Shown here piece by piece: positions 6,950 through 56,948 of a stretch of DNA of 64,000 bases. Origin of the DNA: Escherichia phage phiAPCEc03; the sequence record NC_047754.1. One strand, written 5' to 3'. Each line of letters starts with the position of its first letter. Positions within the stretch are counted from its first letter, which is position 1. The notes beneath the pieces were generated by a model. It saw nothing but the letters and a program-made list of their open reading frames with translations. It did no database searches and had not been told where the DNA came from. The translations under genes and the position numbers were made by a program.

Positions 6950-7431
6950 TTGATTATAGTGGTCTAAAGACCATTTTTGGTGAAAAACTGCCAGAATCTC
7001 ATATCTTCTTTGCTACGGTTGCTGCGCATAAATATGTTCCTAGCTACGCTTTTCTGCGTAGAGAACTAGGACTTTCATCTGCGCATACTAACCGTAAAGT
7101 ATGGAAGAAATTTGTAGAGACCTATGGTAAAGCAGTTCCTCCTGCTCCACCATTAACTCTTTCTAAGGATTTAACTGCTAGCATGTCCGTTGAAGAGGGA
7201 GCAGCGTTAACCCTTTCTGTTACTGCAACCGGTGGTATTGGTCCATATACTTATGCATGGACTAAAGATGGTTCTCCTATTCATGGTGCTTCAGGAGCTA
7301 CCTATACTAAGCCTGCAGCAGCTACAAAGTATTCTGGAGCCTATAAAGTAACTGTAACAGATAGTAAGCAAGTAAGCAAGGACTCTGCTACATGTGCTGT
7401 GACAGTTAATCCTACTGTTCCTGGAGGCTAA
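6946..7431 (+). CDS. capsid decoration protein with C-terminal Ig-like domain (T5 pb10-like)
   Basis: 161 aa; C-terminal segment SVEEGAALTLSVTATGGIGPYTYAWTKDGSPIHGASGATYTKPAAATKYSGAYKVTVTD is an Ig-like (Big/I-set type) fold signature; synteny portal-decoration-protease. Confidence 0.6.
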   Translation: MIDYSGLKTIFGEKLPESHIFFATVAAHKYVPSYAFLRRELGLSSAHTNRKVWKKFVETYGKAVPPAPPLTLSKDLTASMSVEEGAALTLSVTATGGIGPYTYAWTKDGSPIHGASGATYTKPAAATKYSGAYKVTVTDSKQVSKDSATCAVTVNPTVPGG

Positions 7432-7434
7432 TAA

Positions 7435-8067
7435 ATGACACAAGCTGCTATTGACTATAACAAGTTAAAATCAGCACACGTTCATTTAGATGCCTATATT
7501 AAATCTATTGATAGCGAATCCAAAGAGGGCGTTGTAAAAATCCGTGGATTCGCTAATACAATTAGTAAAGATCGCGCTGGTGATGTAATTCCTGCTTCTG
7601 CGTGGAAAACATCTAATGCACTTACTAACTATATGAAAAACCCGATTATTCTTTTCGGACACGATCATCGTCGTCCAATCGGTAAGTGTATTGATCTTAA
7701 CCCTACTGAAATGGGTCTCGAAATCGAATGCGAGATCTATGAAAGTTCTGACCCGGCTATCTTTTCACTAATTAAAAACGGTGTACTGAAAACTTTTAGT
7801 ATCGGATTCCGCTGCCTAGATGCAGAGTGGGATGAAGCTACTGATATATTTATTATTAAAGATTTAGAACTATACGAAGTTTCGGTAGTTTCTGTACCTT
7901 GTAATCAGGACTCAACGTTCAATCTCGCTAAGAGCATGAATGGTCATGATTATACTGAATGGCGTAAATCTTTTACTGCAATAAGTTCTAAAGCTGTCCC
8001 AGCTCAAGAACGTAATCTTTCTGAACTAGAAAAACTTGCGATAGCTTTAGGCTACGTTAAAGAATAA
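7435..8067 (+). CDS. prohead maturation protease
   Basis: 210 aa (same as T5 pb11); directly upstream of major capsid protein. Confidence 0.7.
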   Translation: MTQAAIDYNKLKSAHVHLDAYIKSIDSESKEGVVKIRGFANTISKDRAGDVIPASAWKTSNALTNYMKNPIILFGHDHRRPIGKCIDLNPTEMGLEIECEIYESSDPAIFSLIKNGVLKTFSIGFRCLDAEWDEATDIFIIKDLELYEVSVVSVPCNQDSTFNLAKSMNGHDYTEWRKSFTAISSKAVPAQERNLSELEKLAIALGYVKE

Positions 8068-48202: not shown

Positions 48203-50963
48203 GTTCGGACAGTACTTCTTCTGCCATAGCCTTCTCTTCCTCTGTCATGAATTTGAAAGGAATTGGCATACACTCGATTTTACAATAGGTTCTGTACCAG
48301 TCTACGATATTTTCAGTGTTCATATCCTTACCAATACCCATCATACCAAGATACATTCTAGCATATTTTGGGTTAGCACTCTGACCTGTTTTAAGGAAGA
48401 AATCTTTCTTCTTACCTTTCAGAGCTTCTATGAATGGTTTGATAGTAACATTTGAACACTTCTTAATATCTTCCCAGAACATCTCGTGCATCTTATGGAA
48501 GAATGCAGCTCGATCATTAGGTTTATCTTTGATATATTGTTCAACATGCTCAACTGTTACATCTTTAATAGACTCAAGATGATAGTAGCGAACAAGAAGT
48601 AGTTTAGCTTCGTACGCATCTGCATGGCGTGGAGCACAATAATCAGGAGTTGAATATAAAATAGCTTTGATTCGCTCTTCCGTATACTCTTTTCCTGCAC
48701 CTTCGATAGTTCCCCAGCTTTCACTGAAAATATCAATAGTTGCACCCTGATCAAGCAAGTAATAACGTAAAGTACTAGTATAGTTCCTAGACTCCAGCTC
48801 CCTACGACGTGCGTATAATTGCTGTGCTAACTCCAGCCAACCTTCATCAATGTTATATTGTTCAGAACCTGCGGAGAATCCACTCGTAGATTTATCAATG
48901 AAATAATAAATGTTCTGAGCGCCACGGTCGCGCCTGATTGCTTGGAAACGCATGTTTGGCGCTTGGTTACTAGTTCTAGTAATAACGAATACGTTATCAA
49001 AGTAGTTAAAGTCAACTCCACTCGTTACGGATGGACTACATAATAAGCAATCAATTTGTTGATCAATTAGCTCATTAGTTGTGTAATCCAGAATACGTCT
49101 AATATCCACATCAGACGTAGAGTTTGAGTGGATTTCCTTAACTAACGCACCCGTATTACGACGCAACGCCATGCCCTTCTCATTCAGTTCATCTGGTCCA
49201 CAGTCAGATACTAGGATAGATTTCTCACCCATCTCTAGAGATGTCTGAAGTGCAACCCAAATACTGGATTCATCAGGAAACTCATAAGCATGAGCTTTTG
49301 ACAGCATTCTACGGTGATGATTATAAAATGCAACCGGTTTATCAAACTCAATCAAGGAACCATATGCTTCAATTGTTTCTGCACTAATATCACCATCAGA
49401 TAATATAATGATTTTTGCAGTTGCAAGAATGTCCCGAAGAACCTGAATACATTCACGACGTTGTTTAACAACCGGGGCGAATAATAGGTCATTCATTACA
49501 GCGTCACATTCATCGATAAAGATTGCATCAATTTGACCAATAAAACTCTTGAACTTATGCAAAGAGTGAATAGTTGTGGACATACGGTCAATAGCACCAC
49601 GCTTAAAATTGAGCATATCTACAGACTTATCATATTGTCCTGCACTAAATTTCTTGGCATTTGAAGATACCAGTGCTCTAGTATTGGTAATTGCTAAGAA
49701 ATTACCTTTAATAACTCCTGAGTCTAACCAACGCACAACCGCCGTGGTTTTACCTGTACCTAGACTTGCTTTTACAAAAGTCATATAACCTTCTGGTGGC
49801 ACAGTATTTAATTTCAAGAAGTTATCAGTTTCTAGAGAATTAGTTTCTAGCTTTTTAAGTGGAATACCTTTTAAAACATCTGGTATATCACGTTTAGAAT
49901 TATTAACAAACGCTTTCAGAGCCTGCTTACGACCGTTGTTAAAATAATCTTGAATATTACGACTATTATCTTTAGTTGCAATATACTCAGATAAAGCTGG
50001 GCGGATCTCCTTCTCTAGCCAACCAAAATCTACACCATCCTCTAGTGCTCGGTGATAGAGTTTAGGAATAATACGTAGATATACACCATCCTCAGCTTCT
50101 TCTAACTCGCTGATGGTTTCTTCTACTTTATCAGAGGCAGCCTTTTTACCTTTAATTTGATCGAGTAAGGAGTAGAACTCCTCTTTAAACTCTCCTCTAG
50201 TTGTTTCATAGTCAACTAGATTATTGGGTAAATTTACTTTTGAGCCTTTAACAAATACCAGACGTGAAGCACCCTCCGCTTTAAACGGATCTACTATACC
50301 ATCAGTAAATAAAGGATCTGCAAAGTAATGGAGCTGTACGGAAGAGTAATAAGCTAAGTCGGCAATATCAAAGCCATACTTTTGTCTACTACTTTCGTTG
50401 ATAGATGTAAATAAGAACTTGATTTGACCCTGAGTTACTTTAACATTAGATTCTAGTATTAAGTGCATTCGGATACCTGGTTTTAGCCCAGCCGAAGACG
50501 ATGCATGAGCAATAAACCCTGCATCAAGAGGAAACATGTCCTCACTAATACTATTTAACATTCTAATAATATGTCGAGCCATGCCAACAAGATCAAACTT
50601 GTTACAACCACCTGTATCTACAATACCATCCACGTCCATTGCAATTATATGACTTGGGTTAGATACATTAAAGTTGCCCTTCTTACGTCGCACATTATTT
50701 TTAGGTGCAAGACATCGACCTCGTACCGCAACGATATGAGGGTCAGACGTTAAACGTCTCATAAGAGGAAGCATTTCTACTAGGGTTTGAGGATCAACTT
50801 CATCAATTACATCAAACTTGAAGGGCATTGAAGCTGGTTTACCTTCAGGATGCTTTGAGGAAAATCTTTTAGCAAAAAGATAGTCTTCTGCTTTAACTTC
50901 TCGCCAATTGCCTGTGGCTAAATCGCGATGAAATCCTGCATGACCTTGTAGGATTGAGAACAC
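48177..50963 (-). CDS. large P-loop ATPase / helicase-like protein (possible replication-origin-binding protein)
   Basis: Walker A SLGTGKTTAV and Walker B IFIDECDAV; ORF track start (51041) is a TTG; GTG at 50963 with AGGAG SD 7 nt upstream is preferred; first ATG is further downstream. Confidence 0.6.
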   Translation of the reverse strand: MFSILQGHAGFHRDLATGNWREVKAEDYLFAKRFSSKHPEGKPASMPFKFDVIDEVDPQTLVEMLPLMRRLTSDPHIVAVRGRCLAPKNNVRRKKGNFNVSNPSHIIAMDVDGIVDTGGCNKFDLVGMARHIIRMLNSISEDMFPLDAGFIAHASSSAGLKPGIRMHLILESNVKVTQGQIKFLFTSINESSRQKYGFDIADLAYYSSVQLHYFADPLFTDGIVDPFKAEGASRLVFVKGSKVNLPNNLVDYETTRGEFKEEFYSLLDQIKGKKAASDKVEETISELEEAEDGVYLRIIPKLYHRALEDGVDFGWLEKEIRPALSEYIATKDNSRNIQDYFNNGRKQALKAFVNNSKRDIPDVLKGIPLKKLETNSLETDNFLKLNTVPPEGYMTFVKASLGTGKTTAVVRWLDSGVIKGNFLAITNTRALVSSNAKKFSAGQYDKSVDMLNFKRGAIDRMSTTIHSLHKFKSFIGQIDAIFIDECDAVMNDLLFAPVVKQRRECIQVLRDILATAKIIILSDGDISAETIEAYGSLIEFDKPVAFYNHHRRMLSKAHAYEFPDESSIWVALQTSLEMGEKSILVSDCGPDELNEKGMALRRNTGALVKEIHSNSTSDVDIRRILDYTTNELIDQQIDCLLCSPSVTSGVDFNYFDNVFVITRTSNQAPNMRFQAIRRDRGAQNIYYFIDKSTSGFSAGSEQYNIDEGWLELAQQLYARRRELESRNYTSTLRYYLLDQGATIDIFSESWGTIEGAGKEYTEERIKAILYSTPDYCAPRHADAYEAKLLLVRYYHLESIKDVTVEHVEQYIKDKPNDRAAFFHKMHEMFWEDIKKCSNVTIKPFIEALKGKKKDFFLKTGQSANPKYARMYLGMMGIGKDMNTENIVDWYRTYCKIECMPIPFKFMTEEEKAMAEEVLSELGATNEDA

Positions 50964-51462
50964 AACAATACTCCTGTGTTGGAAATGAAATAAGTTTTCT
51001 TTAGGACTATTCAGAAAGAATAGAACAACTGTTACTGTCAATTTCTCAACAAATTAATTGCAAATACTGAAGTGGGGTGGCAACTTCCACTTTCACGCTG
51101 CGCTGCTGCTTTGCTATACCGCACAAATCCTTGAGGATGGCCGCTAAGCCAGATTTGCTCACCTAATGCTTCATATACTAGCTCATACTAGATGCAATAT
51201 AACTTACAGAATCACGTCTCGGAGTTTTTCACTCCTCCCGTCTCACTTCACAACCACCTCTGTCTAGGTTGCTTCGAGGCCTTACCAGGGTTCCTACGGG
51301 ACGCAGATCGCTAAGTATTCTATTAACTATTTGTTTAAAAACTAACACGTAACAGTTAAAACAACCCTTAATGGGGCAGCCTAACTGTTCCGTATCGCGG
51401 ATTGTAAACAAGAAAAATTAGCAAAATCAATTTTTACTAATGTCTCTCAATTCAATATAAAT

Positions 51463-51491
51463 ATTATATCAAGATTTTGGGCATCCTGCAA
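51463..51491 (-). promoter_or_regulatory. sigma70 promoter (-35 TTGCAG, 17 nt, -10 TATAAT) firing into a ~500 nt leader
   Basis: Minus strand TTGCAG-gatgcccaaaatcttga-TATAAT-ATTTATATTGAATTGAG. Confidence 0.5.
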
Positions 51492-51582
51492 GTAAAATTT
51501 TCCGGATGGTGCTATCATTGGTCTTGAGTACGGATAAAACCGAGCCAAAATGACTCGGTAATCAGAGTTCAGCTAATAAAAA

Positions 51583-51975
51583 TCATTCATCATTTAGGCC
51601 TGGAACATAAATCCCAACACGATTTAATTGTTCTTTAGCTTCTGCGAGAATATCTGGAGTGTACTCCCAAATATCATCTTCCACCTGTAAAAGATGGGGC
51701 GAACAACCATCATCCGGCACACGACATATGGCCAAACCACGTGGATGGAATATAGAGAAGTTTAGGGCAACAATTAAACCCATAGCGGATAATTCATTCC
51801 AGTCCAATTCCCATTCCCCCGCGTAGCCGGATAGGAAAACACCAACACAGGGATCATCTATTTGCTGCTCCGGAAAAGTGAAGGAGGCTTGTCTTACCCC
51901 CAACCAACGTTGTAGCAGCTTCTCCGCACGTTTCACCAAACTAGGATCAATCTGACGCCAATATACTTGTTCCAT
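51583..51975 (-). CDS. hypothetical protein, tandem paralog B
   Basis: 130 aa; aligns with neighbour at 51985 (PCVGVFL..W.EL..MGLIVALNF..F.P......YVPGL versus PCIGLIV..WKELDEMGLVFALNYKLFMP....YMIPGL). Confidence 0.5.
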   Translation of the reverse strand: MEQVYWRQIDPSLVKRAEKLLQRWLGVRQASFTFPEQQIDDPCVGVFLSGYAGEWELDWNELSAMGLIVALNFSIFHPRGLAICRVPDDGCSPHLLQVEDDIWEYTPDILAEAKEQLNRVGIYVPGLNDE

Positions 51976-51984
51976 TATGCCCTC

Positions 51985-52413
51985 TTAAGCAGTTAAACCT
52001 GGGATCATATACCCGAAACGTCGAAGTTTCTGAATCCCCTCATCTACTTCTTCCGGTGAGTAAGACCAACCATAACGTTCATTAACCTGAAAACCAGGAG
52101 ATTCACTAGTTTTATAGTTAACAACGAGGCGATGCTTAGCAGGCATAAACAGCTTATAGTTTAACGCAAAAACTAAGCCCATTTCATCTAACTCTTTCCA
52201 GCCGACAATCTCTTCAAGACCCTCCTCTACCTGAACAATTAAACCAATACAGGGGGCCTCATCAATATCATCTTTAAAAGCAAAGGAGATTTCGTTATTC
52301 TCACACCATATTTTCAAAGAGTTAATAGCCTCATTATACAGGCTAGCTGGGAGAGTACGCCAAAAGTTAACCAAAATTGGGTTAGCTTCTTTAGAGAATA
52401 CATTATTGAACAT
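51985..52413 (-). CDS. hypothetical protein, tandem paralog A
   Basis: 142 aa; see paralog B. Confidence 0.5.
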   Translation of the reverse strand: MFNNVFSKEANPILVNFWRTLPASLYNEAINSLKIWCENNEISFAFKDDIDEAPCIGLIVQVEEGLEEIVGWKELDEMGLVFALNYKLFMPAKHRLVVNYKTSESPGFQVNERYGWSYSPEEVDEGIQKLRRFGYMIPGLTA

Positions 52414-52415
52414 AT

Positions 52416-52955
52416 TTACACCTTAAATTGTTGCAAGGATTTACACATTTCAAGATCTGGGCTAAATTCTAGCATATAGCTAACAGCTTTTAAATCTTGA
52501 AGATTTATCCCAGTCCTACCGTTGACTATAACCGTTGGATACTGATACATCATAGCACCCGCATCATCAAGCACACACCAATGTTTGAGCTTATGCTTTT
52601 CAACGAAGCGAAGAACAGAATTACCCCTAGATAATCCACCACCAGTAAAATCCGTTGTACCAAGAAAACGATCGATAAGACCTAATCCGGTCATAATCTG
52701 AACGTTCTCCATCTCATTTCTGACAGAAAACCAAGATGATACTCCGACAATCATTATCGGAGAAGGACGAATAAAGTCCTGAAAAGCCTTGAGAAGCGGT
52801 TTGAAAACCCAGTCACTTCCAAAGAAAATCTTTTCATCATCAGGTGCATGATGGTGGGAGATGCTCGAATTGAGCACCCCATCAATGTCTAGAAAAATAA
52901 TTGGAGTATTACTTATTTCCACCAGTAGCATCCCACGTCCAGACTTTAACTTCAT
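52416..52955 (-). CDS. HAD-superfamily phosphatase-like protein
   Basis: 179 aa; motif I FLDIDGVL near N-terminus; downstream VLDDAG-type acidic motif. Confidence 0.6.
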   Translation of the reverse strand: MKLKSGRGMLLVEISNTPIIFLDIDGVLNSSISHHHAPDDEKIFFGSDWVFKPLLKAFQDFIRPSPIMIVGVSSWFSVRNEMENVQIMTGLGLIDRFLGTTDFTGGGLSRGNSVLRFVEKHKLKHWCVLDDAGAMMYQYPTVIVNGRTGINLQDLKAVSYMLEFSPDLEMCKSLQQFKV

Positions 52956-53094
52956 CAGTAAAAGGAACCGGAACCTTCAATTCACCCTTACCCCACATAA
53001 CAGACAGGAACAGAGAATAAATGGTAATCATACCAATTAGGTTGACAAACCATACTAGACCTTTCCAGATACCCTTAAAAATCTTCTTTATCAT
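52909..53094 (-). CDS. small membrane protein
   Basis: 61 aa; hydrophobic helix LVWFVNLIGMITIYSLFLSVMW; start overlaps stop of upstream small ORF (ATGA). Confidence 0.4.
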   Translation of the reverse strand: MIKKIFKGIWKGLVWFVNLIGMITIYSLFLSVMWGKGELKVPVPFTDEVKVWTWDATGGNK

Positions 53095-53261
53095 TCGTTC
53101 TCCTCTAGGAACGTATCATACTCAACCGTATCAACATATATGACACCATAGTCATCGGATTTATAGTCCATTTCCCACAGCTCACAGCGATAGCACCAAC
53201 TACCATCCGCCCATACAAATATATCATCGGGATGTGTATACACAGATTTAACTATGGACAT
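53091..53261 (-). CDS. small hypothetical protein (56 aa), paralog of 53252..53437
   Basis: Hand translation MSIVKSVYTHPDDIFVWADGSWCYRCELWEMDYKSDDYGVIYVDTVEYDTFLEENE; shares D-IF-x-GSWCYR motif with neighbour; below ORF-track cutoff. Confidence 0.35.
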   Translation of the reverse strand: MSIVKSVYTHPDDIFVWADGSWCYRCELWEMDYKSDDYGVIYVDTVEYDTFLEENE

Positions 53262-53437
53262 ATCTGTTTCCCCTCATCTCCAGAGGATAACCATATGTTC
53301 TCTGTAGTATAGATAATTTTATATGTGTTGCCCAACCTTTCTTTAACATTAGGAAATCTATAGGCAAACCTATAACACCACGTGCCAGACTCAGTTATAA
53401 AAATATCCCATTCATTATTTCTTGCTTCCCGACACAT
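53252..53437 (-). CDS. small hypothetical protein
   Basis: 61 aa; EWDIFITESGTWCYRF motif shared with 53091..53261. Confidence 0.35.
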   Translation of the reverse strand: MCREARNNEWDIFITESGTWCYRFAYRFPNVKERLGNTYKIIYTTENIWLSSGDEGKQICP

Positions 53438-54233
53438 AAGGTCTACCCTCTAAATGAGCTTCTACACGAGCAATAAAATCAGGATCACTGAAAGCATCTA
53501 CCGCACCTTTACTCCAGTAAGGGATACCGCGTTCTTCCAGCTGGTACATCTCACTACGAGTCATACCTTGATAGCCCGGTTCCGCCGCTAGGGCACTATC
53601 ATAGTAGTTAACAACCATTAGCTTGGCAGCAGTCAAATTAAGAACAGGAAATAATTCCCAGTAGAAGTTAATTACTTGGTTAGAGCAACCAATCACAACG
53701 ATCATATCTTGACTGGTAATACCATCAAAAACATTGTACATTTCTGCGTATGCAGGAGCATGCTCTCCAAAGAAGATTACATTAGGTTTAACCCATTTAT
53801 AATCATCTGGATCAATAGAATTATATCCTACATCAATAATCCGTTTATTACTACTACTGTAGCTATCCGCTACAACAACCTCTTTTAAGTATCCATGAAT
53901 GTGCAGAATGTCACTATGTGGAACTCCAGCACGCTCAATAAGGTCATCAACGTTGGTAGTCAAGTTTACTATTTGACCGGGATATTGTTTATACCATTCG
54001 CCAATACGCAAATGCGCAAGATTGGGTTCAACAGTTTTTAGCTCTTCACGACGCTTGTTGTAAAACATATGGGTTTTATGATAAAAATTACCACGAAAGG
54101 CATGAATATTACATACTTCTTCTAGATCATAATCATCCCACAGTGCTTTACCACTAGCAGTATCAGTACGGAAGGCTCGTACACCACTTTCAACACTCAA
54201 ACCTGCACCGCTAATAATAATTAATCTACGCAT
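53415..54233 (-). CDS. Sir2-family (sirtuin-like) NAD-dependent protein, zinc-ribbon-less
   Basis: 272 aa; sirtuin signature motifs GAGLSVESGVRAFR (cf. GAGISxxSGIPxFR), TTNVDDL (cf. TQNID), HIHG catalytic His, NVIFFGE, VIGCS; no CxxC...CxxC zinc module between HG and FFGE. Confidence 0.7.
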   Translation of the reverse strand: MRRLIIISGAGLSVESGVRAFRTDTASGKALWDDYDLEEVCNIHAFRGNFYHKTHMFYNKRREELKTVEPNLAHLRIGEWYKQYPGQIVNLTTNVDDLIERAGVPHSDILHIHGYLKEVVVADSYSSSNKRIIDVGYNSIDPDDYKWVKPNVIFFGEHAPAYAEMYNVFDGITSQDMIVVIGCSNQVINFYWELFPVLNLTAAKLMVVNYYDSALAAEPGYQGMTRSEMYQLEERGIPYWSKGAVDAFSDPDFIARVEAHLEGRPYVSGSKK

Positions 54234-54447
54234 TTTTCACCTGTTCTCTGAAGTTTTGCCCAATACTGCCTAATAGCTCAGCTAATTCTTTATTGCCTTT
54301 CTCCATTAAGGTATTAGCAATAACTTCTAGCATAGTAGCGCAGGATTCAACACCATCCTTATAGCCAGTTTCCCAGTGCTGCATTAATGCATTTTCCAAA
54401 GCGGCGTTTAACCCCTTATCTGGTAGCATCGGCTTCGAGAATGCCAT
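54226..54447 (-). CDS. hypothetical protein
   Basis: 73 aa ORF. Confidence 0.35.
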   Translation of the reverse strand: MAFSKPMLPDKGLNAALENALMQHWETGYKDGVESCATMLEVIANTLMEKGNKELAELLGSIGQNFREQVKNA

Positions 54448-54619
54448 ACAGTTTCTCCTCTAGTTCCATAACACGATTTTCATAAGAGGCACGCAACTTT
54501 TCAATTGCCAGCGCACGCACTGTAACCTCATTAGAATTAATAGCTAATTGGGCCAGATCTTCTGTTTCCATACGTCCGTTGTAAATTAAGCGATATTTAA
54601 GATGTTTTACGTTTTTCAT
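54416..54619 (-). CDS. hypothetical protein
   Basis: 67 aa ORF. Confidence 0.35.
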   Translation of the reverse strand: MKNVKHLKYRLIYNGRMETEDLAQLAINSNEVTVRALAIEKLRASYENRVMELEEKLYGILEADATR

Positions 54620-54990
54620 ACTTTTAGCTCCGCTCCAATATCCTCATAGAAGTAATCGTAGTAAACCTGCTTAATATGATGTTTAATAACAGAAGAGAAA
54701 TCCTCTGTGCCGTTAGAGGTAACATTAAATACTTGTAAGTGGTTCCAATATACAAATTCTAGAGTCTCTTTTAAGTCTTCAGGTTCTTCATATATAGGAT
54801 TATAGACAGTAATATCTAATTCTTGCTCTACGAAGTCACCTAGTAATGTAGGATATCCAATACCTCCTAGCAATGAGTAATCACCTGTAGCAGCAAAAAT
54901 AGCTTCCTGAATAGTATCTACTCCTAAGTGATAATGTCCTAACTTAGATACAACAATAAATGGTTTTAGGTCCATATACCCTCCTCTCAA
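54616..54990 (-). CDS. hypothetical protein
   Basis: 124 aa acidic ORF with SD GAGAGGAGGG and upstream promoter. Confidence 0.45.
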   Translation of the reverse strand: MRGGYMDLKPFIVVSKLGHYHLGVDTIQEAIFAATGDYSLLGGIGYPTLLGDFVEQELDITVYNPIYEEPEDLKETLEFVYWNHLQVFNVTSNGTEDFSSVIKHHIKQVYYDYFYEDIGAELKV

Positions 54991-55002
54991 ATTTATAAAT
55001 CA

Positions 55003-55031
55003 ATTATACATAAGTTTTAGCTCGAAAGCAA
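55003..55031 (-). promoter_or_regulatory. sigma70 promoter (-35 TTGCTT, 17 nt, -10 TATAAT)
   Basis: Minus strand TTGCTT-tcgagctaaaacttatg-TATAAT-TGATTTATAAATTTGAGAGGAGGG then ATG at 54990. Confidence 0.6.
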
Positions 55032-55066
55032 ATAAAATAAAAGCCAGGTCGACTAGCAACCCGGCT
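55032..55066 (-). terminator. intrinsic terminator after nrdD
   Basis: Minus-strand hairpin AGCCGGG-ttgctagtcga-CCTGGCT followed by TTTTATTTTATTT. Confidence 0.6.
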
Positions 55067-55073
55067 GATTAGC

Positions 55074-56948
55074 TTATTTAGCTCGAATATCCTGATGCTT
55101 CACTCTGCCCATCACCTCGTGCTGTTTGCCGGGGTTAAATGGACGAGCACCCGGATTTCCAAGATACCCACAAACTCTACGAGTTACTTCAAGAGTTTCG
55201 GGGTCATGATTACCACAGATAGGGCACTTAAATCCATCTTCGGATGCTATTGTTTCACCTAAGAATCCACATTTACCACAAGAATCCACTGGAGTATTAA
55301 TACCGAAGTAATGAACCTTACTAGCAGCATAATTAATAACCCATTCCAGTGCATCTGGGAATCGTTTCATATCCGGTAGTTCTACATAGGAAATGCACCC
55401 ACCAGAAGCAATCGGAGTAAAGTTAGATTCATAATCAAATTTTACGTTAGGAGCAACTTTACGTTCCACATCAAGGTGATGAGAGTTAGTGTAGTATCCT
55501 TTGGACAGAATATCTTCATGCTCCGAGAAATATTCACGGTCTAGACGACAAAAACGGTCACATAGGGATTCTGATGGTGTAGCATACAGGCTATAACCTA
55601 ACTTAGTTTCTTCCTTCTTCTGATCGACTCTATCCCGCATGTACTGCAATACACGCTGAACAAACTTGATGCAGGTCTCGGACATTGTGTCTACATCTTT
55701 GCCAAACATGAACTGTAGCATTTCATGGCAACCAATATACCCTAGAGATACAGAAGCACGGTTATAGAAGTGATCGAATACATATTCATCAGGCTCCAAG
55801 CGCAGTCCAAAGGCTCCTGACATATAGAGGATGGGCGCAGCTTTAGCTTGAATGTATTTTAAGCGATCAACTCTCCACTCCAATGCTTTTAACGCTGTAT
55901 CCACACGTAGCTCAAGCAAATCAAAGAATAGATCAATATTTCCTTCAGCTTCGATAGCAATTCTAGGCAAGTTTACAGAAACAACACCTAAGTTATTACG
56001 ACCGGCAGTTTCACCATCTTCTGTAGCAGCTAGGAATGAACGGCAGCCCATAGAAACTTTATAGTCGCCAGTAACTTCCACAACCTTGTCATAGCTGATA
56101 TAATCTGGATACATACGTTCAGACGTACATTTCATAGCTAACTTCTTGATGTCATAATTAACATCTCCTGGTTTCATGTTAACGCCATCACGAAGCACAA
56201 ATACTAGTTTCGGGAAGATAGCTGTACGTTTATTGATACCTAAACCATCCATACGTACTTTTAGTATTGCTTTCTGTACTAGACGTGCCTCCCAAGAAGT
56301 TCCTAGACCAAAACCAAAGGTAATAAATGGACTCTGACCATTAGAGTTGAACATGGTATTGATTTCATATTCTAAACCCTGACAAGCGTCATAGACTTCT
56401 TTCTCAGTCATCTCCGTAGCCATTACGGATGCTTTGGCTTCATCCTTAGTCCAACGTTTTGCAAACGCATGATTTTTGTCATAGGATTTACGAACATAAG
56501 GGGCTAATACTTCATCAAGGCGGTCTACAGAAGTACCACCATACTGATGGGAGCTAACTTGAGTGATAATCTGAGCAGTAATAGCCGCCGCAGTAGTGAT
56601 AGAGTTTGGAGTGCTAATTTCAGCATTACCAACCTTCATACCATTCTTCAACATATCTTCCAGAGCTACCAGACAACAGTTAGTCATGCCTAATGCAGCA
56701 TAATCAGCATCATGGAAATGAATATCCCCAATCATATGAGCATTTCGAATCTGAATTGGCATTTCTTCTAGAATCAGATACTTACTCAATTCACCTGCAA
56801 GCATATCCCTTTGTGTAGGGAAACGTTCTGAGGGTTTATTGGCATTATTAAACAGCAGCTCTTCATCTGCTGACCCTTCGATAATCTCTTTGCAGTTTCT
56901 AATTAACGCCTGCATTTCTTTATACTTTAGTTCTTCATTGCGATTCAT
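55074..56948 (-). CDS. nrdD: anaerobic ribonucleoside-triphosphate reductase (class III, NrdD)
   Basis: 624 aa; C-terminal CPICGNHD zinc ribbon and glycyl-radical motif RVCGYLG; SD GAAGGAGAG. Confidence 0.85.
   Translation of the reverse strand: MNRNEELKYKEMQALIRNCKEIIEGSADEELLFNNANKPSERFPTQRDMLAGELSKYLILEEMPIQIRNAHMIGDIHFHDADYAALGMTNCCLVALEDMLKNGMKVGNAEISTPNSITTAAAITAQIITQVSSHQYGGTSVDRLDEVLAPYVRKSYDKNHAFAKRWTKDEAKASVMATEMTEKEVYDACQGLEYEINTMFNSNGQSPFITFGFGLGTSWEARLVQKAILKVRMDGLGINKRTAIFPKLVFVLRDGVNMKPGDVNYDIKKLAMKCTSERMYPDYISYDKVVEVTGDYKVSMGCRSFLAATEDGETAGRNNLGVVSVNLPRIAIEAEGNIDLFFDLLELRVDTALKALEWRVDRLKYIQAKAAPILYMSGAFGLRLEPDEYVFDHFYNRASVSLGYIGCHEMLQFMFGKDVDTMSETCIKFVQRVLQYMRDRVDQKKEETKLGYSLYATPSESLCDRFCRLDREYFSEHEDILSKGYYTNSHHLDVERKVAPNVKFDYESNFTPIASGGCISYVELPDMKRFPDALEWVINYAASKVHYFGINTPVDSCGKCGFLGETIASEDGFKCPICGNHDPETLEVTRRVCGYLGNPGARPFNPGKQHEVMGRVKHQDIRAK

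Follow-up and report, generated by a model that had tools for sequence, protein, structure and literature searches.

The interval 51583-54990 of the window (the whole stretch of 64,000 nucleotides analysed here) is one promoter-to-terminator transcription unit and, judged from its sequence, is the already annotated early operon T5.100-T5.107 of T5-like phages in a new, ten-gene mosaic version. Recombination has added or removed five of its small ORFs or exchanged them for divergent alleles. I hold with moderate confidence that the mosaic has two halves, one encoding a deacylase and a phosphatase and the other a pair of DUF7415 proteins that would act as replication adaptors. The locus is ordinary, since it is an annotated early operon with five constant genes and five swappable mini-genes, yet its enzymes are still unexplained.

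Layout of the operon

The operon lies between nrdD and the gene for the replication-origin-binding protein (a UL9-type helicase). Its features, and those at its edges, are as follows.

55042..55066, minus strand: intrinsic terminator of the upstream nrdD, the 5' limit of the unit (10-bp GC-rich stem, then a T-run)
55003..55031, minus strand: predicted sigma-70-type early promoter, TTGCTT-17 nt-TATAAT (direct sequence reading)
54616..54975, minus strand: acidic 119-aa protein, T5.100-like, phrog_11748, variable accessory gene (ATG at 54975 behind GAGGAGG)
54416..54619, minus strand: 67-aa protein, T5.101-like, phrog_5236, core gene (PHROG E 3.7e-46)
54226..54447, minus strand: 73-aa protein, phrog_5827, variable (PHROG E 2.6e-30)
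53415..54233, minus strand: Sir2 family protein, 272 aa, T5.102-like, a CobB/class III-like sirtuin without zinc cysteines
53252..53437, minus strand: WCYR mini-protein 1, 61 aa, T5.103-like, phrog_5116, rare accessory copy
53091..53261, minus strand: WCYR mini-protein 2, 56 aa, T5.104-like, phrog_5116
52909..53094, minus strand: 61-aa hydrophobic mini-protein, phrog_11166, rare accessory gene (PHROG E 2.5e-44)
52416..52955, minus strand: cap-less HAD-superfamily phosphatase, 179 aa, HAD_SAK_2, T5.105-like, start at M1 or M9
51985..52413, minus strand: DUF7415 paralog 1, 142 aa, T5.106-like, two DUF7415 repeats (Pfam DUF7415 5.2e-36)
51583..51975, minus strand: DUF7415 paralog 2, 130 aa, T5.107-like, two DUF7415 repeats
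51534..51559, minus strand: intrinsic terminator closing the operon, ACCGAG...CTCGGT then TTTTAT (direct sequence reading)
51205..51315, minus strand: structured RNA in the leader (about 490 nt) of the origin-binding-protein gene (covariation)

The initial annotation had listed ten minus-strand genes in the interval. All ten ORFs were confirmed at their coordinates and each matches a PHROG family (E-values from 1e-24 to 1e-120), so there is no chance ORF among them. Its remark that their roles are not known also stands, as no function has been characterised for any of the ten. The first gene had been read as an acidic protein of 124 aa (54616-54990); acidic it is (pI 4.36), but a start at ATG 54975 is likelier, giving 119 aa.

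The genes are tightly packed, neighbors either overlapping or lying at most 9 nt apart. The promoter comes after the nrdD terminator in the window, and T5 has a promoter and a terminator annotated at the matching positions. The terminator at the end of the operon, annotated at the equivalent place in both T5 and HdH2, is absent from the list produced by a consensus terminator scan.

Just outside the ten-gene interval sits the structured RNA, composed of 22 base pairs in 5 helices, with 96.8% of cells paired and compensatory changes at 11 pairs (0 of 500 shuffles were as good). It occurs as a single copy in the window, in Pantoea phage AAS21 and in Erwinia phage KEY, and it matches no Rfam family.

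Constant and variable genes

The operon of T5 (NC_005859, 55786-58927) has the same place, gene order, and promoter and terminator positions as that of the window. Seven of its eight annotated genes (Sir2, both WCYR ORFs, the 67-aa T5.101-like ORF, HAD and both DUF7415 genes) encode proteins 88-98% identical to their counterparts, whereas the identity of T5.100 is only 49%, the two phages carrying different alleles of the acidic protein. The window's ten ORFs exceed the eight of T5 by the 73-aa ORF and the hydrophobic 61-aa ORF. More widely, the operon is present in 446 phage records; no single record of the phage collection extends over more than 90% of the interval.

The interval had been regarded as an accessory island, to be checked by presence and absence across T5-like genomes. 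That comparison supports the idea for one half of the genes and contradicts it for the other. Five ORFs do vary, either in presence or as divergent alleles, namely those for the acidic protein, the 73-aa product, the two WCYR mini-proteins and the hydrophobic 61-aa protein. The other five, encoding the 67-aa protein, Sir2, HAD and both DUF7415 proteins, are conserved in 26 of the 27 T5-like genomes sampled; the remaining one has a deletion running through Sir2. The 67-aa protein (86-100% identity) and DUF7415 paralog 1 are found at all 27 loci. Even distant Demerecviridae retain parts of the operon. Sir2, a WCYR ORF and DUF7415 are present in Klebsiella phage Sealy; in Pantoea phage AAS21, HAD and Sir2 remain, still linked but in a changed gene order. 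With the core genes so constant, the GC content (0.37-0.44) like that of the flanks (0.37-0.42) and only five small ORFs patchy, the locus as a whole is not an accessory island in terms of presence and absence.

The variable ORFs differ in how they vary. The acidic protein, confined to 129 phage records, all from Demerecviridae, exists as two alleles (at least 90% or 45-49% identity); it has no match in Pfam, nor in a PDB sequence search at E-values up to 1. The 73-aa ORF, which overlaps the 67-aa ORF as the initial annotation had it (the overlap is 32 nt), is more than 90% identical in 10 of the 27 loci, 65% in one and a 29-34% variant in another 10, with a partial match in one more (L035). 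It is unmatched in five, and T5 itself has no detected homolog. The two WCYR mini-proteins were rightly paired, both belonging to phrog_5116 and sharing DIF..G.WCYR, and they are weak paralogs. The first occurs in only 3 of the 27 sampled IMG/VR T5-like loci, T5 itself being one of them. The second occurs in 22, usually after Sir2, and in 482 phage records, where it typically falls under or beside a Sir2 annotation; in phage Sealy, too, Sir2 is followed by an ORF 45% identical to it. The hydrophobic 61-aa protein is found at 6 of the 27 loci (AKFV33 type), each time together with a long N-terminus of the HAD gene. It had been called a small membrane protein; the ORF is sound, and its membrane character is suggested by hydrophobicity alone (a hydrophobic N-terminus, GRAVY +0.42).

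The DUF7415 pair

The last two genes had been recognised as tandem paralogs, and indeed the 142-aa and 130-aa proteins are 31% identical (E 4e-20) and both match Pfam DUF7415 (PF24187), with scores of 123.1 and 110.7 bits (cut-off 27). Each protein is matched in two stretches and is an internal tandem of a 53-aa module found only in phages. In an alignment of 146 family members, each of the residues G, L, N, H, P, G, G and S is shared by at least 90%, and they can be made out by eye in the C-terminal repeat. The family has no known fold relative.

Among 80 IMG/VR loci with DUF7415, 38 place it within 2.3 kb of the P2-type replication initiator gpA, and in 15 of those 38 it lies 9-17 nt upstream of gpA; since P2-like loci share ancestry, this association amounts to few independent events. 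Other copies adjoin class I/II RNR, and in Klebsiella and Proteus T4-like phages DUF7415 lies between nrdD and nrdG. It is also found fused to thymidylate kinase and to a PF04447 dATP/dGTP pyrophosphohydrolase, within a heterogeneous set of partners that includes Cox, ASCH/DUF3850, DUF551 and a ClpX zinc finger.

T5.107 is also the one gene of the operon for which an effect on fitness has been reported. In the CRISPRi-ART screen of T5 (PMC11879866 supplement), T5.100-T5.106 were scored "Not Fit", i.e., dispensable on laboratory E. coli, and so was T5.108, the origin-binding protein gene, while T5.107 was one of 17 "Fit" genes, if marginally (fitness -2.90, p 0.02). The T5.107-like last gene does not look dispensable, then, but weakly important. 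The initial annotation held that none of the ten genes belongs to the replication core, a statement that is doubtful for the T5.107 gene, because its family is associated, in other phages, with replication and dNTP genes.

The sirtuin and the phosphatase

Both enzyme-family assignments of the initial annotation were borne out. The Sir2-like protein matches Pfam SIR2 (1.7e-24; 87.2 bits against a cut-off of 24) over profile positions 1-178 of 180, and among PDB entries it comes closest to E. coli CobB (1s5p, 1e-17). Aligned to 1s5p, it has GAGLSVESGVRAFR (the NAD-binding GAGxS), TTNVD (the Asn/Asp of TQNID) and HIHG (the catalytic His), and the motifs GAGxSxESGIxxFR, FYNxRR, TxNxD, HG and FGE all align with CobB. 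Its FYNKRR falls on FYNARR, so the Tyr-x-x-Arg pair is kept. In SIRT5 and CobB this pair binds succinyl or malonyl (acidic acyl) groups. The zinc module is a different matter: there is no Cys between HG and FGE, and only two in the whole protein, yet the length of the module is kept although the four zinc cysteines are gone. None of the NCBIfam CobB equivalog or subfamily models was reached (best score 99.7 bits against 243). The protein thus resembles the CobB-type (class III) lysine deacylases, with loss of the zinc cysteines, a resemblance that would fit deacylation; given the absent zinc ligands and scores far below the equivalog cut-offs, it might instead be an NADase or ADP-ribosyltransferase. 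The defence-type SIR2 NADases (ThsA, DSR1/2, SIR2-HerA) were considered as relatives and rejected, no PADLOC family matching at E-values up to 0.01. Among T5-like phages Sir2 has two alleles, 92-97% and about 50% identical.

The HAD protein, found in 497 records of the phage collection, matches Pfam HAD_SAK_2 (4.9e-20; 72.7 bits against a cut-off of 27.5) over profile positions 1-138 of 139. It has the Rossmannoid HAD fold with no cap domain, and all four catalytic motifs are kept (the DxD nucleophile, Ser/Thr, Lys/Arg and the acidic DD). Across 22 homologs with identities down to 27%, D23, D25, S73/S74, R110 and D130 never vary, and at least 90% have D131. A sequence-level relative in PDB was not found.

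Possible functions of the operon

The reading that I prefer takes the operon to be a conditionally useful early module outside the core machinery, with two functional halves. Sir2, probably with the WCYR protein encoded downstream, would remove acyl groups from host or phage proteins at the expense of NAD+, and the cap-less HAD would take a phosphomonoester off a bulky substrate such as ADP-ribose phosphate, an RNA 3' end or a phosphoprotein. The DUF7415 pair would serve as acidic, protein-binding adaptors on the machinery of replication and dNTP supply, a role that would explain both why the pair lies between nrdD and the gene of the origin-binding helicase and why T5.107 alone has a fitness effect. 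The variable mini-ORFs would be strain-specific cargo. The neighborhoods of HAD homologs give conflicting hints: one lineage has NARP1-like genes there, others have an RNA ligase or Metallophos gene, and most have nothing telling.

The first of these hints suggests a counter-defence module centered on NAD, an unlikely reading in my judgment. HAD would be a non-Macro analogue of Adpp, clearing phosphorylated ADP-ribose left by RES-type or other NAD-degrading defences, while Sir2 and its mini-protein would modulate NAD/ADPR-dependent immunity and the variable mini-ORFs would inhibit defence proteins directly. The closest HAD homologs outside T5-like phages (38-40% identical), those of Serratia phage ChuuTotoro (with a 4-nt overlap) and the JGI contig L049, lie directly upstream of a Prs-like and NAPRTase-family pair, which is the published signature of NARP1 (bioRxiv 10.1101/2024.02.11.579819). 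Homologs of the Prs-like protein, 37-42% identical, occur in ICP1 and in E. coli and Salmonella phages of roughly 86-89 kb. NARP1 operons can recruit a phosphatase, the Macro-domain Adpp (bioRxiv 10.64898/2026.01.28.702374), and 4 of 60 IMG/VR loci with distant relatives of HAD have NAMPT- or Adps-like genes no more than 6 kb away. Laboratory dispensability of the genes also suits such a role, and the mosaic of alleles seen for Sir2, the acidic protein and the 73-aa ORF is a typical arms-race pattern. Against this, the NARP1 adjacency is confined to one phage lineage, the window has no Adps or Namat homolog, a sirtuin uses up NAD+ rather than restoring it, and the core genes are family-wide, not patchy. 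The claim that the combination of genes is typical of counter-defence cargo is plausible as a hypothesis but unsupported as it was put: PADLOC gives no hits, no defence or anti-defence family matches, these proteins are missing from a catalogue of 268 anti-defence proteins, and the window has no NAD-reconstitution genes.

The second hint leads to the repair of RNA (tRNA) ends, which I consider quite unlikely. HAD would be a 3'-phosphate or 2',3'-cyclic-phosphate phosphatase, like the T4 Pnkp domain, acting against the damage of anticodon nucleases, with Sir2 as a co-travelling NAD-dependent step. The Pfam class is that of the "HAD domain in Swiss Army Knife RNA repair proteins", and the absence of a cap suits substrates that are macromolecules. 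An RNA ligase gene (PF09414) is found 1.3 kb from HAD in a jumbo-phage group, and another contig has one 3 kb away; Rnl1, a PNK-like kinase and Metallophos adjoin distant relatives in IMG/VR loci. Metallophos is the commonest bacterial neighbor family (6 of 39 loci), where one RlaP RNA-repair nucleotidyltransferase also appears, and in Klebsiella phage VLCpiM5b a T5-type Sir2 stands in a run of Metallophos, Rnl1, AAA_33 kinase, Sir2 and DNA ligase. In the window, tblastn with three RNA ligases, a PNK-like kinase and a Metallophos protein found nothing, which rejects a healing/sealing system of the Pnkp type there.

Another reading, in which the small ORFs are mostly decaying or spurious and Sir2 and HAD alone are true genes, is very improbable: five ORFs are no longer than 73 aa, several are absent from many relatives and knock-downs gave no phenotype, but the PHROG matches, the constancy of the 67-aa ORF, the WCYR ORF beside Sir2 in another genus and gene overlaps typical of translational coupling all speak for genuine genes.

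Comparison with known systems

Adpp of NARP1-AP is a small phage phosphatase beside Adps/Namat-type genes, much as the ChuuTotoro homolog of HAD is, but it has a Macro fold (Poa1p-like), while the protein of the window is a HAD without Macro match. Membership of the operon in NARP1-AP was rejected on this ground and for want of an Adps/Namat operon in the window, that feature belonging only to the ChuuTotoro and L049 homologs. With the cap-less (C0) HAD phosphatases MDP-1, Scp1/Fcp1, UBLCP1 and the phosphatase domain of T4 Pnkp, the phage HAD shares only 12-14% identity and, unlike T4 Pnkp, it has no fused kinase.

CobB and SIRT5 offer the best PDB and NCBIfam matches to the phage Sir2, with the same NAD, catalytic and acyl-pocket motifs, though the phage protein lacks the four zinc cysteines and stays below the equivalog cut-offs. 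A zinc-less Sir2 has been described in KVP40-like phages, with its conservation in T5 noted as well (PMC5107563). In these Vibrio phages (roughly 246 kb) Sir2/CobB is 34-39% identical to the window's Sir2 over most of its length, but they also carry NAMPT/NMNAT genes for NAD salvage, of which the window has none.

The 53-aa DUF7415 module is also encoded, sometimes as a fusion to DUF5405, by small ORFs next to gene A in the early operon of P2/186-like phages. Those ORFs mostly have a single domain, whereas the T5 proteins have two repeats each and form a tandem gene pair, and where the P2/186-like genes adjoin the gpA nickase gene, the T5 pair instead precedes the gene for a UL9-type helicase.

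An annotated operon of T5-like phages

The ten minus-strand ORFs that the initial annotation placed in 51583-54990 were matched exactly by those in the ORF list of 50500-56500. All ten find a PHROG family (E-values of 1e-24 to 1e-120), and four contain Pfam domains: SIR2, HAD_SAK_2, and DUF7415 in both of the terminal ORFs. Adjacent genes share 4 to 47 nt or else lie no more than 9 nt apart, and the elements around them are as follows:

55066-55042, minus strand: terminator of nrdD, upstream of the operon promoter
55031-55003, minus strand: operon promoter (TTGCTT-17-TATAAT), directly after the nrdD terminator
about 51559-51534, minus strand: operon terminator (hairpin and T-run), downstream of the last gene
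51491-51463, minus strand: next promoter (TTGCAG-17-TATAAT), within the 616-nt gap
51315-51205, minus strand: structured RNA (five helices, 22 pairs), in the gap 50967-51582

The packing of the genes, together with the promoter and terminators that flank them, marks the interval as one compact transcription unit. A consensus scan gave no excess over shuffled sequence of either promoter-like sites (14 vs 13.0) or terminator-like sites (4 vs 2.7), and the boundaries were therefore read by eye and checked against the annotation of T5. For the first ORF the most probable start is the ATG at 54975, with a GAGGAGG Shine-Dalgarno sequence ahead of it; this would give a product of 119 aa rather than the 124 aa first proposed; the acidic character ascribed to the protein stands (pI 4.36). 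The two WCYR mini-proteins have phrog_5116 and the motif DIF..G.WCYR in common, and the terminal DUF7415 proteins are indeed tandem paralogs, 31% identical to each other (E = 4e-20).

In the annotations of HdH2 and T5 alike, nrdD is followed by a terminator, a promoter, T5.100-T5.107, a terminator, a promoter, and then the origin-binding gene T5.108. The same arrangement in both identifies the interval as the known T5 early operon. By megablast it is matched by 446 phage records, all T5-like; none covers more than 90% of it, and this combination of ten genes is therefore a new mosaic. The locus is thus a known operon, annotated family-wide in hundreds of genomes, and not an accessory island, as had been proposed. 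Its GC content (0.37-0.44) equals that of the flanks, which does not suggest a recent foreign origin. The earlier interpretation is partly right, in that the genes lack a characterised function, can mostly be spared in the laboratory, and form in part a mosaic.

Core and variable genes

The ten proteins were compared by tblastn to 27 T5-like loci from IMG/VR. The 67-aa protein, Sir2, HAD, and the two DUF7415 proteins persist in all of the loci except one, in which a deletion takes in Sir2, reaching from the 73-aa ORF on one side into the 5' part of HAD on the other. Sir2 has two alleles in this set (92-97% and about 50% identity). The 73-aa ORF appears at more than 90% identity in ten loci, at 65% in one, and as a 29-34% variant in another ten; it was undetected in five and is partial in the locus with the deletion. 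WCYR mini-protein 2 is present in 22 of the 27, WCYR mini-protein 1 in only three (T5 itself among them), the hydrophobic 61-aa ORF in six, and the acidic protein, as two alleles, in 11. In the phage collection as a whole, only 129 records, all of Demerecviridae, have the acidic protein.

The core is partly kept in more distant relatives. Klebsiella phage Sealy lacks HAD; its nrdD is followed by a small ORF and by Sir2, after which come a WCYR-like ORF (45% identity) and a pair of ORFs of about 130 aa, of which the second resembles DUF7415, and then a gap and the gene for the origin-binding protein (OBP). Pantoea phage AAS21 lacks nrdD; its series runs from HAD through a 118-aa ORF, Sir2, and small ORFs to a gap and the OBP gene.

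The neighboring nrdD (55074-56948) of T5-like phages likewise has two alleles (in loci L010-L036, 90-99% and about 60% identity), and that of HdH2 is annotated as two separate adjoining CDSs. Records named as Listeria phage or Campylobacter phage (for example, search matches H309 and H317) carry near-identical T5-like sequence and are probably mislabelled or contaminated submissions.

Fitness and the DUF7415 proteins

The literature search found no assay of any of the ten operon proteins. In a genome-wide CRISPRi-ART knock-down of T5, T5.100-T5.106 were scored 'Not Fit'. T5.107, to which 51583-51975 is orthologous, was scored 'Fit' with a fitness of -2.90 (p 0.0215); it is among 17 Fit T5 genes and is called 'of entirely unknown function' (PMC11879866 supplementary files). 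The call for T5.107 is marginal, and the OBP gene was also scored Not Fit, indicating that the sensitivity of the screen is limited.

The two terminal proteins match DUF7415 with E-values of 5e-36 and 4e-32, each over two stretches, and the domain occurs in about 870 of 50,697 phage records, some of which label the gene 'tail tube protein'. Of 80 IMG/VR loci (L136-L215; for example, L180 3617-6393 and L144 1159-4237), 38 have a DUF7415 ORF immediately next to replication gene A, on its upstream or its downstream side, an arrangement of P2/186-like prophages. Some of these copies carry a fused N-terminal region, the phage homologs of which are labelled DUF5405 in RefSeq, and tblastn with a P2-like DUF5405-DUF7415 fusion gave matches dominated by the DUF5405 part. 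A search for the dhr gene of phage 186 yielded nothing usable. The fusions weaken the view of DUF7415 as specifically a nucleotide-metabolism domain: only about 3-5 of 146 representatives are joined to enzymes of this kind, and the remaining fusion partners are a mixed set. If DUF7415 binds replication or dNTP-synthesis proteins, this would account for T5.107, a Fit gene of T5, as well as for the conserved neighbor of gene A in P2-like prophages.

A candidate leader RNA

The operon is followed by a non-coding gap of 616 nt (50967-51582), in which the next promoter and a leader of about 490 nt precede the OBP gene. Most of the sampled T5-like loci conserve the first 239 nt and last 70 nt of the gap, and the middle 300 nt or so (about 51036-51343) exists among T5-like phages in at least two unrelated versions. 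The version present in the window occurs in 164 phage records; AAS21 and Erwinia phage KEY have it at about 77% identity. The structured RNA is supported by seven distinct sequences, with 96.8% of cells paired and 11 pairs showing compensatory changes that span T5-like phages, AAS21, and KEY; none of 500 shuffles reached these values, and slid controls gave no more than 3 compensatory pairs. The window, AAS21, and KEY each gave a single match to a covariance model, which found no copy in T5, Sealy, or AKFV33-type loci; the motif is thus not family-wide. T5 holds the other version of the gap (about 7212-7472 of its locus, L002), which the model does not match. A search of 50900-55200 against Rfam at E-values up to 1 returned only a chance miRNA match, leaving the leader RNA without an Rfam family. 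On this comparative evidence it is a candidate for a new cis-regulatory RNA of a phage replication gene.

Sir2 and the WCYR mini-protein

The 272-aa Sir2 protein matches Pfam SIR2 (E = 1.7e-24), and its closest solved relatives in a PDB search are E. coli CobB (1s5p, 1e-17) and SIRT5. Aligned with CobB, it keeps the NAD-binding GAGLSVESGVRAFR, FYNKRR, TTNVD, the catalytic HIHG, and FGE but has lost all four cysteines of the zinc module, the length of which is unchanged. In class III sirtuins (SIRT5/CobB), the tyrosine and arginine of the FYNKRR-type segment serve acidic acyl-lysines. Among NCBIfam models it matches only those for CobB, far below their cut-offs. The same zinc-less type of sirtuin was described in KVP40-like Vibrio phages, and its presence in T5 noted, in a study of in-silico modelling and transcript data that did not include an enzyme assay (PMC5107563). 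Sir2 is a mobile and common phage gene: homologs are found in 998 of the 50,697 phage records, among them those of jumbo phages and of V5-like phages (Vequintavirinae and relatives), the latter at 52-60% identity. A WCYR mini-ORF follows Sir2 across genera, which suggests that the mini-protein may be its partner.

Klebsiella phage VLCpiM5b has a T5-type Sir2 (60% identity) within a run (L052 1449-6578) of Metallophos phosphoesterase, Rnl1 RNA ligase, AAA_33 (PNK-like) kinase, Sir2, and ATP-dependent DNA ligase, which in gene content resembles an RNA end-repair style cassette.

The HAD phosphatase and its neighborhoods

The 179-aa HAD protein matches Pfam HAD_SAK_2 (E = 4.9e-20), a family found in about 500 of the 50,697 phage records. 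PDB searches with HAD (single sequence and profile) and with the acidic protein gave no match, and nothing was found in the literature on HAD_SAK_2 or DUF7415. RefSeq and PHROG label the gene (52416-52955; T5.105) 'Sir2 (NAD-dependent deacetylase)' by way of phrog_18062, a 92-position profile that matches HAD residues 88-179 at 7e-58; the label looks like a propagated mis-annotation.

The genes around HAD relatives suggest two directions. On the side of NAD, HAD remains linked to Sir2 in AAS21 despite the different gene order, and it lies directly upstream of a Prs-like and NAPRTase-family pair in Serratia phage ChuuTotoro (L005 5001-8217; 4-nt overlap) and in a JGI contig (L049 6001-9569). 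The Prs-like protein is a member of the broad Adps/Prs family of phages, and the pair is the published signature of the NAD+ reconstitution operon NARP1 (bioRxiv 10.1101/2024.02.11.579819). On the side of RNA repair, the Pfam family name itself refers to RNA-repair proteins, and HAD lies 1.3 kb from an RNA ligase in a group of jumbo phages and 3 kb from one in another contig. A set of 60 distant IMG/VR loci includes about four with RNA ligase, accompanied or not by PNK-like and Metallophos genes, and about four with NAMPT- or Adps-like genes. Of the families beside HAD in 39 bacterial loci, Metallophos is the commonest (six loci), and one RlaP RNA-repair nucleotidyltransferase occurs; all of these are raw counts. 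The window contains none of these NARP1-like or RNA-repair partner genes, and both contexts are therefore treated as leads. That HAD is generally linked to NAD is weakened by its jumbo-phage, distant IMG/VR, and bacterial contexts.

Discussion

As a locus T5.100-T5.107 adds little, annotated as it already is in hundreds of genomes. The interest of the operon lies in testable hypotheses regarding Sir2, DUF7415, and HAD_SAK_2, three protein families very common among phages and in particular virulent enterobacterial phages. The counter-defence role first proposed for the genes is unproven: dispensability and mosaicism speak for it, and against it, a PADLOC scan of all ten proteins, defence-SIR2 models included, gave no match, and a catalogue paper of anti-defence proteins does not mention them.

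One reading, which I think unlikely, would join these families. HAD_SAK_2 would be a second, non-Macro class of phosphatase acting on ADPR-1''-phosphate or a related ADPR-phosphate, and this one activity would account for its presence beside both RNA-repair genes and NAD-handling genes (the NARP1-like operons of ChuuTotoro-type phages and the zinc-less sirtuin of Demerecviridae). In T5-like phages, Sir2 and HAD, with the WCYR mini-protein, would form a pair for NAD/ADPR-based counter-defence or metabolite clearing, and the tandem DUF7415 proteins would represent a widespread, unrecognised class of replication-linked takeover factors.

ADPR-1''-phosphate is a by-product of NAD-dependent removal of RNA 2'-phosphates. 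As the substrate of HAD it would reconcile the two contexts, a speculation to which I give little credence. The compound is also a product of the aRES defence, and Macro-domain Poa1p/Adpp shows the same double life; NARP1 operons recruit Macro-domain Adpp, an ADPR-1''-phosphate phosphatase, to overcome aRES (bioRxiv 10.64898/2026.01.28.702374). From its position, the HAD_SAK_2 protein of ChuuTotoro and the JGI contig may be a non-Macro counterpart of the Adpp of NARP1-AP operons. If HAD is indeed an ADPR-phosphate phosphatase, then the phage NAD+ arms race between NARP1-AP and aRES would gain a second enzyme fold.
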